Shown: positions 3,627-23,665 of the stretch, piece after piece
How positions within the stretch are numbered: position 1 is the stretch's first letter
How the letters are laid out: each line of letters starts with the position of its first letter
From: Candidatus Ethanoperedens thermophilum
Lineage (GTDB): Archaea; Halobacteriota; Methanosarcinia; Methanosarcinales; EX4572-44
Length of the DNA: 26,657 nucleotides
Assembly: GCA_012910725.1 (NCBI GenBank)
Contig: WNEG01000087.1
Coordinates: 13,917-40,573, forward strand
Direction of reading: 5' to 3'
Made by a program: the position numbers and the translations under genes
Notes under the pieces: generated by a model
Told to the model about the DNA's origin: nothing
Seen by the model: the letters and a program-made list of their open reading frames with translations, nothing else
The model's database searches: none

Positions 3627-3860
3627 TCAGACAACCAGTCTATATATAGTTGCTTCACCTGCTGTTGCACTTTTTCTGGTTACTTTAATCACATTTCCAG
3701 CACCTGCTTTTATTTCTTTTATAACAGGATCAACAGTTTTAATTTTTGGAAGTTGCTCTTTTTCAATGTTGTATTTTTCCAGAACCAGTGCAAGCTCCTC
3801 ATCACTCAATATTTCATGATTGGGAACCGTATCATGATTTAACAAACTAAACTCTTTCAT
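3627..3860 (-). CDS. rpoH: DNA-directed RNA polymerase subunit H (Rpo5), 77 aa
   Basis: HDTVPNHEIL...LPKIKTVDPV...VIKVTRKSATAGEATIYRLVV. The true start is the ATG at 3860; the longer track ORF runs into the IS element. Confidence 0.95.
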   Translation of the reverse strand: MKEFSLLNHDTVPNHEILSDEELALVLEKYNIEKEQLPKIKTVDPVIKEIKAGAGNVIKVTRKSATAGEATIYRLVV

Positions 3861-5296
3861 CGTACTTGTGCAAGGAGACCCAGTCCGCAAGGGCGGGCAG
3901 GAATTGCGCACACCTCCTGTATAACTCCTTTTGCTCTTTTTAGAAGCGTTAACTTCTTGCTGTTTACTGACGCTCCGATTTGATCTCCAGTGATTGTCCG
4001 AAGACCAAAGTATCCGGAACTCCGTAATCCATGTATAAAACATTCGTTGTTGTTGTATTTCACTTTATCATACCTTCTGAATCCTTTAACTTCTTTCACA
4101 GTATTTCTCTTTAACCTTCCTCCTTTGAGGAGGTTGGCTTTGTATAATGATCGGTTCTGTCGCCTTACTTGTTTGCTGATGATTATGCTATCAGATCGCA
4201 TCTGACCATTACCGCCAGCAATAACAAAAGCATCCGTTGCGTGTGATTTCTCTAATCCAAGTTTGATGCGATTGTATTTTGTGGTGTAGCCATACGTCTG
4301 ATTACAATTCAGCAGATCAACGATTCTGCTTCTCACAGCATTCATAAACGCAGTCGCTTTCAGTGTCTTTTCGGCTTTGCTCTGTATTTCAGGGTGACCG
4401 AACTCTCCAGCTGTCTGATTGCCCTTTGCCTGATTGCACTCGTGACAGGCTATCGTCAGATTAGAGACTCTATCCGAACCGCCTCTTGACCGTGGTACGA
4501 TATGTTCAATCTCCAATGGCACATCCTTTTTGCCGCAGTAAGCACATTTCCTGCCCCACTTTTCCAGCAGGTACTCTCTGACTTCGTATCCTTGCAATTC
4601 TCCTTGTTGGTATTCTATTCCACTGATTTCTGGATTCTGCATCTTCTGGGCATCGAAAGAAGCGACCTCGATAACTATTTTTGTAATCGGAAGAATCTTC
4701 TTCAGTTTCTCAATGAGTTTGATGTGGTTATTCAATTTATGTTGAATGTTCGGTGCAAGCCAGCCTTTTGGGATGCCGCGATTGTTGAAACGTGGTTCTC
4801 TGTGCCACAACCTTGCTCTTCGCGTGCGTCTGTATGTTCTTCGTTTTTCGATGAGTCGTTTGATGTCGGATCGCAGGGTTAATTCGCCAGCGATGAGTTC
4901 TCTGTCGGATGTTACTGTGCTGAACCCGACCGTTGTGTATCCAGCGTCTATTCCGAGTGTTGTGTCCTGCGTATTTTCTTCACAATCCCAAAGCAATCTA
5001 ATCGTGAACGGTGTCTGCTGAACGACCTCTGCTCTACCTGCTTCCAGCAGATGTCTTGCTTTTGCAGGTTTGCATGGCATCAGGGGATTTCCATTCTTGT
5101 TAATCACAAATACCAGCGTATCGGCTTTATGCCCTCCCGCTGGTTGGAGTAAGTGCTCCTCGGAGTTGTTGGAAAGTGTTTTTAAACTCACCACACCGTC
5201 CTTGCCCCTCGGGACTTTTAATGATGGGTCACAGTTGCACCGAACTGGAGCAGTATTCGGTGGTGTGTATGTATTTCTTCTATCCAACTTCTGCAT
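3857..5296 (-). CDS. iscB: IscB RNA-guided endonuclease (OMEGA)
   Basis: PLMP (NPLMPC), RuvC-I GIDAG, Arg-rich bridge helix RRTYRRTRRAR, RuvC-II IEVASFD, HNH CAYC..EHIVP..N..CHECN, RuvC-III HATDA. GGAGG precedes the ATG at 5296. Confidence 0.95.
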   Translation of the reverse strand: MQKLDRRNTYTPPNTAPVRCNCDPSLKVPRGKDGVVSLKTLSNNSEEHLLQPAGGHKADTLVFVINKNGNPLMPCKPAKARHLLEAGRAEVVQQTPFTIRLLWDCEENTQDTTLGIDAGYTTVGFSTVTSDRELIAGELTLRSDIKRLIEKRRTYRRTRRARLWHREPRFNNRGIPKGWLAPNIQHKLNNHIKLIEKLKKILPITKIVIEVASFDAQKMQNPEISGIEYQQGELQGYEVREYLLEKWGRKCAYCGKKDVPLEIEHIVPRSRGGSDRVSNLTIACHECNQAKGNQTAGEFGHPEIQSKAEKTLKATAFMNAVRSRIVDLLNCNQTYGYTTKYNRIKLGLEKSHATDAFVIAGGNGQMRSDSIIISKQVRRQNRSLYKANLLKGGRLKRNTVKEVKGFRRYDKVKYNNNECFIHGLRSSGYFGLRTITGDQIGASVNSKKLTLLKRAKGVIQEVCAIPARPCGLGLLAQVR

Positions 5297-5382
5297 TGTT
5301 TTAGGTGCCTCCTGATCAACTAAGGGATTCTTTAGAAGTCCCTTCCTTTAGTCCTGTTAGGGTCAAGGGAGGGGTAGTTGAC
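3861..5382. mobile_element. Non-autonomous IS200/IS605-family element carrying iscB
   Basis: Left end follows TTCAT and has a subterminal hairpin; right end ..GGGAGGGGTAGTTGAC. Removing it rejoins GGAGG..AAGTAAG to the rpoH ATG. No tnpA inside. Confidence 0.9.
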
Positions 5383-5411
5383 CTTACTTAGGTTTCCTCC
5401 TGTAGCAGAAA
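5115..5411 (-). ncRNA. Putative IscB omegaRNA (5' guide from flank 5383-5411, scaffold starting GTCAACTACCCC at 5382; 3' boundary approximate)
   Basis: Canonical GTCAACTACCCC start, GTCAACTA/TAGTTGAT closing stem and internal hairpins upstream of the PLMP codons. Confidence 0.65.
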
Positions 5412-5485
5412 CGGGCTCGATGGGAATTGAACCCACGACCATCTGGTTAAAAGCCAGGTGCTCTGCCGAACTGAGCTACGAGCCC
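5412..5485 (-). tRNA. tRNA-Lys (anticodon UUU), no intron, CCA not encoded
   Basis: GGGCTCG/CGAGCCC acceptor stem, D arm GCTCAGTTCGGCAGAGC, CTTTTAA anticodon loop, GGTTCAATTCC T arm. Confidence 0.95.
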
Positions 5486-5607
5486 ATATAAAGGGCATGC
5501 GCACAAATATGCAACTTGTTATTATATGTTCACACAAGATCTTGAAGATATCACTGAAGATGCATCCACCTTCCAACATCCTAATCTAATTTAAAACTTT
5601 CTCTACA

Positions 5608-11729: not shown

Positions 11730-11825
11730 TATCGCTGGCAGGGGTGTGGTGGATGTAATGATTGGTATGGCAAAGTCTTTTGAACCATATCATCATTGAA
11801 TTATAGTAGCAAAGGAGGGTATTCC

Positions 11826-13034
11826 ATGAACATCATCAAAAACGTAGAGATTGTGAATTATAAAGGCATCGAGAAGACGCAATTTTCATGCGGTTCTATA
11901 AATATCATAGTAGGTCCGAACAACACAGGAAAATCTTCCATTTTGGAATCAGTCTGGATGGCGGTCGCTTCTTTAAACGACTTTGAAGACAATCTTGAGA
12001 CCCGATTATCAGATATTATCGAAACTGAAAATATCAGACATTTGATACACCAGGGCAAACAGAAATCGACTATAGCATTAGAAATTTTTGAAAATGATAG
12101 GATAATACTGGATTTACTATATTCAAAAAAGAACTATCCTGAAGAAGTTGCTGAGTTTTTTTTAACTTTTATAAATAAAACTCCAAAATTTGATGAGTTT
12201 GAAACTGATTTCCACATGAGCCTATTGGAATTACAGGTTCTTGGAATTAAATTAGATAGGCTATCTGGAAAAGCGGGATTAAAAGAGGAGTTGGATAAGT
12301 TGCTGAAAAGAGTCTCCGAAAACATTGAATCCGTTATCGAAGACTATAGGAGCAGGTTAATCAAATCAGAAAAGGTATTCCTAACCTCAAAAATAAACAA
12401 CAACTTAATCAGCATACGTGCAGTAATGGATGGCTATGCTGATGGAATTTCCATCTTCAACGAAGAGAGCCCCTCCATCCAAAAGATTCCTCTAATTATC
12501 AGTTCCCCTCACATTGATGAGGATGTATCTGAAATTTATAAAAAATTAGTAAATACAAAAAAACTGGCAGAGGTGCTTGAAATCCTGAAAAATAAAATAC
12601 CATATTTTGAAGATATTAGAGAGGTAGATGGTGACTTGCTTGTTTTGCTTGAAAATCTGGATGAACCGTTACCGTTGTCTTTCATGGGAGACGGTTTCAA
12701 AGCTCTTTTAAAGCTATCCTTCATGGCACCTCTGATTAAAAACGGAATCGCCCTCTTTGAAGAGCCCGAAACATCAATGCATCCAGGATATCTTAATATT
12801 TTGGCAAAAGAGATCTTATTAAGCTCTGAATATTCTCAAATTTTTATATCCACTCACAGTTTGGAACTGATAGAGTATCTGCTGGAAAAGGCTGAGAAAT
12901 CTGGCAAGATCGAATCTATAAAGATTTTAAAACTGCGCAGGTTAACAGAAGGCTACATAGAAAGAGAAATCTTCTCAGGAAAAGAGGCGGCTGAAGAGAT
13001 TGAAGTGATTAAAACCGACCTCAGGGGGTTCTAA
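11826..13034 (+). CDS. ABC-type ATPase (AAA_15/AAA_21-like; OLD/PARIS-type)
   Basis: Walker A GPNNTGKS, signature-like SFMGDG, Walker B LFEEPE..HP, H-loop ISTHS. Start set at the ATG at 11826 after GGAGGG. Confidence 0.88.
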   Translation: MNIIKNVEIVNYKGIEKTQFSCGSINIIVGPNNTGKSSILESVWMAVASLNDFEDNLETRLSDIIETENIRHLIHQGKQKSTIALEIFENDRIILDLLYSKKNYPEEVAEFFLTFINKTPKFDEFETDFHMSLLELQVLGIKLDRLSGKAGLKEELDKLLKRVSENIESVIEDYRSRLIKSEKVFLTSKINNNLISIRAVMDGYADGISIFNEESPSIQKIPLIISSPHIDEDVSEIYKKLVNTKKLAEVLEILKNKIPYFEDIREVDGDLLVLLENLDEPLPLSFMGDGFKALLKLSFMAPLIKNGIALFEEPETSMHPGYLNILAKEILLSSEYSQIFISTHSLELIEYLLEKAEKSGKIESIKILKLRRLTEGYIEREIFSGKEAAEEIEVIKTDLRGF

Positions 13035-22312: not shown

Positions 22313-23665
22313 CCTACTTGCGCAAGGAGACCCCGTCCGAAAGGACGGGGAGGAATTGCGCCCTCCATAGAGCTTACATAGTTTCGTGACATAGTTAACA
22401 TCGGTGAGACCTTGAAGACGATACTAATCAACTGTTTGCCATTAACCAGCAAGAAACAGCAGATACGCAATAGCTTCTTTAAAGAATATCTTCGCGTTCT
22501 GAATGCCACACTTAAATCATTGCCTGATGCCAAATCTTCAAACGATTTGCACCACCTAACATACTTCAACATTCGTGAAACCTCCTTTTTGCCTTCTGAT
22601 ATTGTTCAAGAAGCCCGAAAAGATGTGTGGGCTAAACGCAAGACTGTTAATAATAGATTCAAACGGTGTTCTATCCGACTTAACAAGAGATGGTTCAGGT
22701 TTTTTACCACTGATCGAGCAACCCCCAGCTTCAAGATCACCTACGCTCCACACAAAACTTTTACGATACCCATAGCAATTGATGGTGGTTATGATCGATT
22801 CACCTGTTTTCTCGATGATGGCTGGGTTATCAAAACTATATCCCTTCTCGACAGTAAAATTGCTGTCGCCATCGACAAAGATTTCGAAGTTCCTGCTAAC
22901 ATCAGCAGGTATGTCGTAGGAGTTGATGTTGGTTCGACCACTCTCGCAGCGATAACCATTTTCGACACCCTCGAAAACCGTGTTGTCAAACAACTCTACT
23001 TTGGTAGAGATGTTGCCATCAGGCAACGCAGGATTGCGGATCAGCGTGCTTTGCTTCGGAGCAATGTCGACAAAGGTTCTGATCAAGCGAAGAAGAGTCT
23101 TAAACGGCTTGCTAACAAACAATTCAACTTTGTCAAGACCCGTAGTGGTCAAATTGCTAAAGAAATCGTGGAACTCGCGGTTAAACATAGTGCATCCATT
23201 GCCATTGAGAAACTTACTATTAGAAGCAGGAAACACCAATTTAACAAGACGGCTAACCGAAAGATAAACACGATTCCGTATGCACAGCTCAGAGACTTTC
23301 TTATATCGAACTGTGCCGAGTACGGAGTGTATCTTGATCAAGTTGATCCTTACCACACCTCGAAGTGGTGTCCTCACTGCGGTGCAGTGAATAATGGACA
23401 TGCCACATCTAACTACGCTTTGTATAGATGCAAAGAGTGTGGTCTGGTTGTTAATAGCGACAGAAATGCGTCCCTCGTGGTTGCCATCAAATCGGCTCTG
23501 GTGCGGGAAAATTCTCAAGGTCTCACCAACCTTTTTTCCCAGTTTACCAGAGCTAAAGTCCCTGTAAACGGGCTTTTTCGTCCAGATGATAAGTTTTTGA
23601 GTTGTGCTGTGCATGATATCAGTCCTTTGATGGAAAGCCCCTTCCGATAGGGAGGGGTAGTTTAC
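22313..23665 (+). mobile_element. Non-autonomous IS200/IS605 (IS1341-type) element carrying tnpB
   Basis: Follows TTCAT; left-end hairpin CCCCGTCC-GAAA-GGACGGGG; right end ..GGGAGGGGTAGTTTAC. Removing it restores a TAATG pstC/pstA overlap. Confidence 0.92.
22412..23650 (+). CDS. tnpB: TnpB RNA-guided endonuclease
   Basis: RuvC-I GVDVG, RuvC-II IAIEKL, Zn finger CPHC/CKEC, RuvC-III SDRNA; TTG start after GGTGA. Confidence 0.93.

Follow-up and report, generated by a model that had tools for sequence, protein, structure and literature searches.

The closest described relatives of the locus analyzed here are ISC2 transposons with an N|ATGA target (ISC2-1_HM, ISC2-1_MS and ISC1-1_MA; PMC4810608). 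The element found at rpoH of Candidatus Ethanoperedens shares with them an IscB with an HNH domain, a 5'-GT end, insertion directly before ATGA without target duplication, the non-autonomous state, and ends in common with TnpB-bearing IS605B partners whose genes have the opposite orientation. In contrast to the archaeal families described with them (Methanosarcina lacustris; PMC4810608), which target GT|GA, the rpoH element targets the start codon of a host gene that lies behind a tRNA. The words "tRNA" and "start codon" are absent from the paper of Kapitonov et al. (PMC4810608).

A second relative is GstIscB of Geobacillus stearothermophilus (bioRxiv 10.1101/2023.03.14.532601). Like the rpoH element it has the TAM TTCAT, ATGAA on the iscB strand; the guide comes from flanking DNA beyond the element end, host transcription is needed, and the donor joint is cleaved. 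Activity has been shown for GstIscB but is only predicted for the rpoH locus, and the description of GstIscB contains no tRNA-linked maturation. The RNA scaffold of the rpoH locus is a full-length match to the HEARO RNA (RF02033) above the gathering score. Unlike HEARO, this subtype has a Shine-Dalgarno sequence and an open MQKL frame in the scaffold, in frame with iscB.

With regard to the neighboring tRNA, comparison can be made to systems in which an upstream tRNA fold lets tRNase Z define the 5' end of a small RNA. In Haloferax, tRNase Z cleavage behind tRNA-like elements generates the 5' termini of 5S rRNA (t-element) and of an engineered icrRNA (PMC4326828), and engineered tRNA-gRNA arrays use the same principle. 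In these systems the cut falls exactly at the functional end, by conservation or by design. The rpoH locus, in contrast, would leave 12-13 surplus nucleotides between the cut and the used guide, and is a one-off arrangement.

The IscB element and the empty rpoH alleles

The window is a stretch of 26,657 nucleotides from Candidatus Ethanoperedens thermophilum (contig WNEG01000087.1), and the features of the rpoH locus are collected in Table 1. Its RpoB'' protein belongs to a cluster that bears the name Ca. Argoarchaeum ethanivorans / Methanosarcinales archaeon. Elsewhere the window contains a candidate defense gene, an AbiEii-like ATPase (AAA_15/AAA_21; 11796-13034, + strand).

Table 1. Features at the rpoH locus, in positions of the window
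Feature	Position	Strand	Basis or remark
Candidate archaeal BRE-TATA promoter AGAGAAAGTTTTAAAT	5589..5604	-	lies about 110 nt before the tRNA; predicted function
tRNA-Lys(UUU)	5412..5485	-	Rfam RF00005, 69 bits; ARAGORN tRNA-Lys(ttt)
Ancestral tRNA-rpoH spacer, 29 nt	5383..5411	-	abuts the rpoH ATG directly in empty alleles
Predicted IscB guide	3' 16-17 nt of 5383..5411	-	length from the OgeuIscB structure, PMC9640706
Native rpoH Shine-Dalgarno sequence AGGAGG	5396..5401	-	now separated from the rpoH start codon by the insertion
ISC element (IS200/IS605 superfamily), 1522 bp	3861..5382	-	without tnpA, without target duplication; ends set by empty-allele comparison
HEARO/omegaRNA scaffold (scaffold end of the element)	5149..5382	-	RF02033, 106 bits (gathering score 83), model positions 1-211
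Element-borne Shine-Dalgarno sequence AGGAGG before the MQKL start, within the scaffold	5308..5313	-	in sister copies too; predicted use
IscB ORF, 479 aa	3857..5296	-	NF040563, 395 bits (cut-off 175); Pfam RRXRR, HNH; PDB IscB matches
TAM-side subterminal hairpin	3861..3908	-	common to sister copies
Target/TAM ATGAA, also the rpoH start codon	3856..3860	-	ATGA after 16 TAM-side ends in the genome; PMC4810608; bioRxiv 10.1101/2023.03.14.532601
rpoH (RNA polymerase subunit H), first in the rpoH-B''-B' operon	3627..3860	-	PF01191, NF007129

The scaffold lies upstream of iscB, and its match to the RNA family begins at 5382, which is the element boundary obtained from the empty alleles. The IscB reading frame is intact, with PLMP, RuvC-I LGID (D117), HNH (H265) and RuvC-III HATDA located. 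It includes an extension of about 60 codons encoded within the omegaRNA scaffold, and at the other end its stop codon TGA shares bases with the rpoH start codon. The MQKL frame (scaffold region 5114-5296, - strand), some 60 codons in frame with iscB behind the Shine-Dalgarno sequence, remains uninterrupted even in sister copies that have diverged or carry deletions. Five full-length TnpA matches (PF01797) in the genome represent the Y1 transposase. Subterminal hairpins are visible on the elements, and their recognition in trans is putative.

Two congeneric genomes carry the identical 29 nt joined straight to ATGAAAG, with no element. A third congener is empty too, and its spacer differs at one TAM-distal base. 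Twelve further assembly loci, with rpoB'' identities of 94-98.7%, likewise contain no element, and their spacers show up to a few substitutions. The empty site reads ...AGTAAG|ATGAAAG, or a near variant of it, in the three congeneric genomes and the 12 assembly loci. Judging from these alleles the insertion at rpoH is recent, and so far it has been seen in the Ca. Ethanoperedens assembly only.

In 29 of 29 relatives checked across the order, a tRNA-Lys is found directly upstream of rpoH, with a gap of approximately 24-134 nt. Because of this constant order, and because the empty alleles carry the spacer, the gap in front of the scaffold is the old spacer between tRNA-Lys and rpoH. It agrees with the spacer before insertion in all of its 29 nt; the distance was not reshaped for a guide. 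As a separate observation, the tRNA-Lys before rpoH has an anticodon-loop intron of variable length in several families (16 loci), and none in the genus of the Ca. Ethanoperedens element.

The initial annotation had placed the tRNA discriminator at 5412 and the scaffold start at 5382 with 29 nt in between, a geometry that Rfam, ARAGORN and the sequence itself confirm. It had also reconstructed an IS-free rpoH allele with an ATGAA TAM, and had taken the 5' flank of the scaffold as the guide that matches it. Such an allele exists naturally, identical in the two congeners and as near variants in the other empty loci, which supports this reading of the guide. The last 14-16 nt of the guide occur a single time in the assembly and never before ATGA, and there is therefore no self-target; the natural target would be the excised or empty allele. 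Methanosarcinales possess multiple chromosome copies. The match between guide and empty allele would lead to ordinary restorative homing, which is predicted for the rpoH locus. Donor-joint cleavage and restorative homing are published for IscB (donor-joint cleavage: bioRxiv 10.1101/2023.03.14.532601); homing to the empty site is a published role of IscB and nothing special to the rpoH locus.

Docking on start codons

The N|ATGA target without duplication is found at 16 TAM-side ends of the genome. Clean empty sites are available for rpoH and, again in congeners, for pstA, rpp29 and truB. At GH57, C110:11306 and C85 the joined flanks match the congeners imperfectly, which makes these cases weaker evidence that docking is precise. 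Among the 15 TAM-side ends that could be assessed, 13 open ORFs of at least 77 aa, and the docked genes include RtcB, phosphomannomutase, Rpp29, TruB/Cbf5, GH57 and PstA. Eight sister elements on other contigs sit before the ATG of rtcB, phosphomannomutase, rpp29, truB/cbf5, GH57 and other genes, and several sister elements are short non-autonomous copies. By a crude gene call, start-like sites account for 5-6% when every ATGAA site is counted, and for 26-30% when the count is confined to non-disruptive sites.

In four gap-free short copies the frame stays open up to the host ATGA (one of them lacks the last two bases in the assembly), and one copy without a gene behind it has a shorter open frame only. 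Open frames that run into the host ATGA fit a translational restart at ATGA overlaps, which has been shown in gene pairs of Haloferax (PMC6728339). Translation of rpoH would probably be kept in this manner, through restart at the ATGA overlap of iscB and rpoH.

Further docked ends were noticed. A TnpB element in the window (22313-23665, - strand; PF07282 ORF at 22412-23650, + strand) has both ends in common with the IscB element, sits in the TAATG overlap of pstC and pstA, and contains an antisense ORF of 87 codons with its own Shine-Dalgarno sequence, ending on the pstA ATGA. Its site is empty in three congeners. A decayed TAM-side end precedes an ORF beginning with MKIGVADTTF in all four genomes of the genus; docked ends can thus persist through speciation. 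We take this ORF to be riboflavin synthase-like. The same docking occurs outside the order: in a Thermoplasmata MAG (L044:2676-2700) the IscB stop codon overlaps the ATG of a 423-aa ORF resembling histidyl-tRNA synthetase.

tRNA neighbors of IscB and HEARO elements

The initial annotation had gone further and proposed a dedicated processing fusion of tRNA and guide RNA. If this were a selected trait, the family would target sites behind tRNAs, or would be kept there, in order to borrow tRNA processing. The geometry at the rpoH locus is what speaks for such a fusion, at this locus alone. Among the 11 IscB-type scaffold ends of the genome the rpoH copy is the only one with a tRNA within 600 nt (0 of 10 sister ends). 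Order-wide, a search of the 400 nt preceding each of 92 further HEARO matches with distinct flanks yields no tRNA, while the same test recovers the rpoH locus as positive control. In 110 IscB-protein loci from other taxa, no tRNA comes closer than approximately 100 nt to where the scaffold is expected to start; the closest one upstream in this set begins 537 nt before the IscB match. We also scanned 392 genomes of the class for a T-loop followed after 15-45 nt by a scaffold start. This pattern returned the rpoH locus, one match (L209) rejected as not being a tRNA, and one TnpB-type end; in viral contigs it occurs 0 times. The surveys, together with a spacer that is ancestral, unchanged and present without the element across the order, do not uphold the proposed fusion, and we regard it as highly improbable.

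The TnpB-type end is located in another order of the class (L210:1437-1680), 10 nt behind a tRNA-Ser. It is not the same arrangement, as it is without a HEARO match and what follows the end, read from the sequence, is the C-terminus of a TnpB in antisense orientation. Its predicted guide would be antisense to the 3' trailer and acceptor stem of the tRNA-Ser.

Adjacency to a tRNA is not above chance for the element family. Of 236-295 ATGAA sites classed as start-like, about 2 have a tRNA at most 60 nt away, and since 13 copies are docked, the chance of one tRNA-adjacent copy is by our own arithmetic roughly 10%. The locus is an ordinary ISC2/IscB element with an incidental tRNA neighbor. Two steps are shown: an IscB-encoding ISC transposon targeting N|ATGAA recently inserted on the rpoH start codon of a Ca. 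Argoarchaeum-like archaeon, and the 29 nt that normally separate tRNA-Lys from rpoH came to serve as the 5' flank that carries the guide. In our preferred explanation, which we hold with considerable confidence, the tRNA is a by-product of the landing site and no part of the system. The tRNA context may still have helped this copy to persist, at this single locus.

Transcription and the 5' end of the guide

The candidate promoter sequence AGAGAAAGTTTTAAAT is identical across four genomes of the genus (three congeners and the Ca. Ethanoperedens contig), and several other families have GAAA..TTTAAA-like motifs ahead of the tRNA. Transcription of tRNA-Lys, omegaRNA/iscB and the rpoH-rpoB operon likely starts from this promoter. 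There is no consensus TATA hexamer in the tRNA and spacer of the genus, and no more than 3 T residues stand in a row in the spacer. With a conserved BRE-TATA upstream, and a spacer free of TATA and U-run, read-through from the tRNA promoter into the scaffold is likely. The host transcript that enters the scaffold would most likely be the primary transcript of tRNA-Lys and the rpo genes. IscB depends on transcription of its omegaRNA from outside the element (Meers et al., bioRxiv 10.1101/2023.03.14.532601), and the rpoH copy, like every IscB element, needs such a host transcript. A scan for sigma-70 promoters was set aside as inapplicable to archaea.

The transcript could also end near the tRNA, and a separate promoter within the tRNA gene or the spacer could start an omegaRNA-iscB-rpoH RNA with RNase Z uninvolved. 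Such a start would fit two TATA-like stretches, TTTTAA within the anticodon arm and TTTATAT immediately 5' of the tRNA, and the rpoH gene of Haloferax has a start site of its own, with tRNA neighbors that point away (PMC4983044 Table S2). These neighbors are divergent tRNA-Asp genes (PMC4983044), and the Haloferax start sites consequently do not bear on read-through from tRNA-Lys to rpoH. The lack of a consensus TATA hexamer in tRNA and spacer, T-runs of at most 3 and a 29-nt spacer with little room for termination plus a new start argue against the separate promoter, which we consider quite unlikely. The TTTATAT stretch, which reads TTTTATATAT in congeners, lies at 5486-5496 (- strand) immediately next to the 5' end of the tRNA in this genus and could mean a different start site.

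On the preferred explanation, with read-through, an RNase Z cut behind the tRNA would yield a 5'-monophosphate RNA starting at 5411. The tRNA does not encode its CCA end (discriminator G followed by TTT), the genome codes for RNase Z and a CCA-adding enzyme, and the acceptor stem is predicted to fold in the joint transcript with pair probabilities of 0.91-0.99. A first cut at 5411 is plausible from these data, and RNase Z probably acts at the locus as a side effect.

The origin of the arrangement might be incidental and its function nevertheless decisive, if the cut fixed the mature 5' end of the omegaRNA at 5411 and gave a discrete 29-nt guide, like an engineered tRNA-gRNA fusion. The CCA-less tRNA with its well-folding acceptor stem, the encoded RNase Z and the 5' ends set by Haloferax tRNase Z on downstream RNAs (PMC4326828) point in this direction. 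Long guides are moreover accepted, since OgeuIscB tolerates 27 nt (PMC9640706) and MG35-1 prefers 24 nt. Against this, only about 17 nt of the guide pair with the target in the OgeuIscB structure (PMC9640706), the sister copies without tRNA must mature otherwise, and the predicted protein-free fold pairs part of the 5' spacer with the scaffold. An unprotected 5'-monophosphate leader would, furthermore, be open to trimming by exonucleases. We keep a mature end set by RNase Z as a tentative possibility. It is compatible with the preferred explanation, the sole difference being the position of the mature end.

Since IscB uses the last 16-17 nt or so only, the preferred explanation has the mature end probably set by protein protection and trimming, the route that the tRNA-less sister copies must take as well; the guide may thus be shortened beyond the RNase Z cut. 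A stronger combination, in which host RNase Z makes the working 5' end of the IscB guide as a natural counterpart of tRNA-gRNA fusions and loading of IscB competes with coupled translation of rpoH, appears rather doubtful to us. Such competition would arise because the ribosome-binding site of iscB is part of the scaffold, where the RNA-polymerase operon message begins.

As a system the locus offers nothing new, the link to the tRNA being a single accident. The formation of the 5' end of native IscB omegaRNA is poorly described in the literature searched, and the rpoH locus with its predictable first cut at 5411 represents a clean case in which to test how guides mature in archaea. Of wider generality is the docking on start codons, which together with a probable translational restart lets an IscB element sit before an essential operon.
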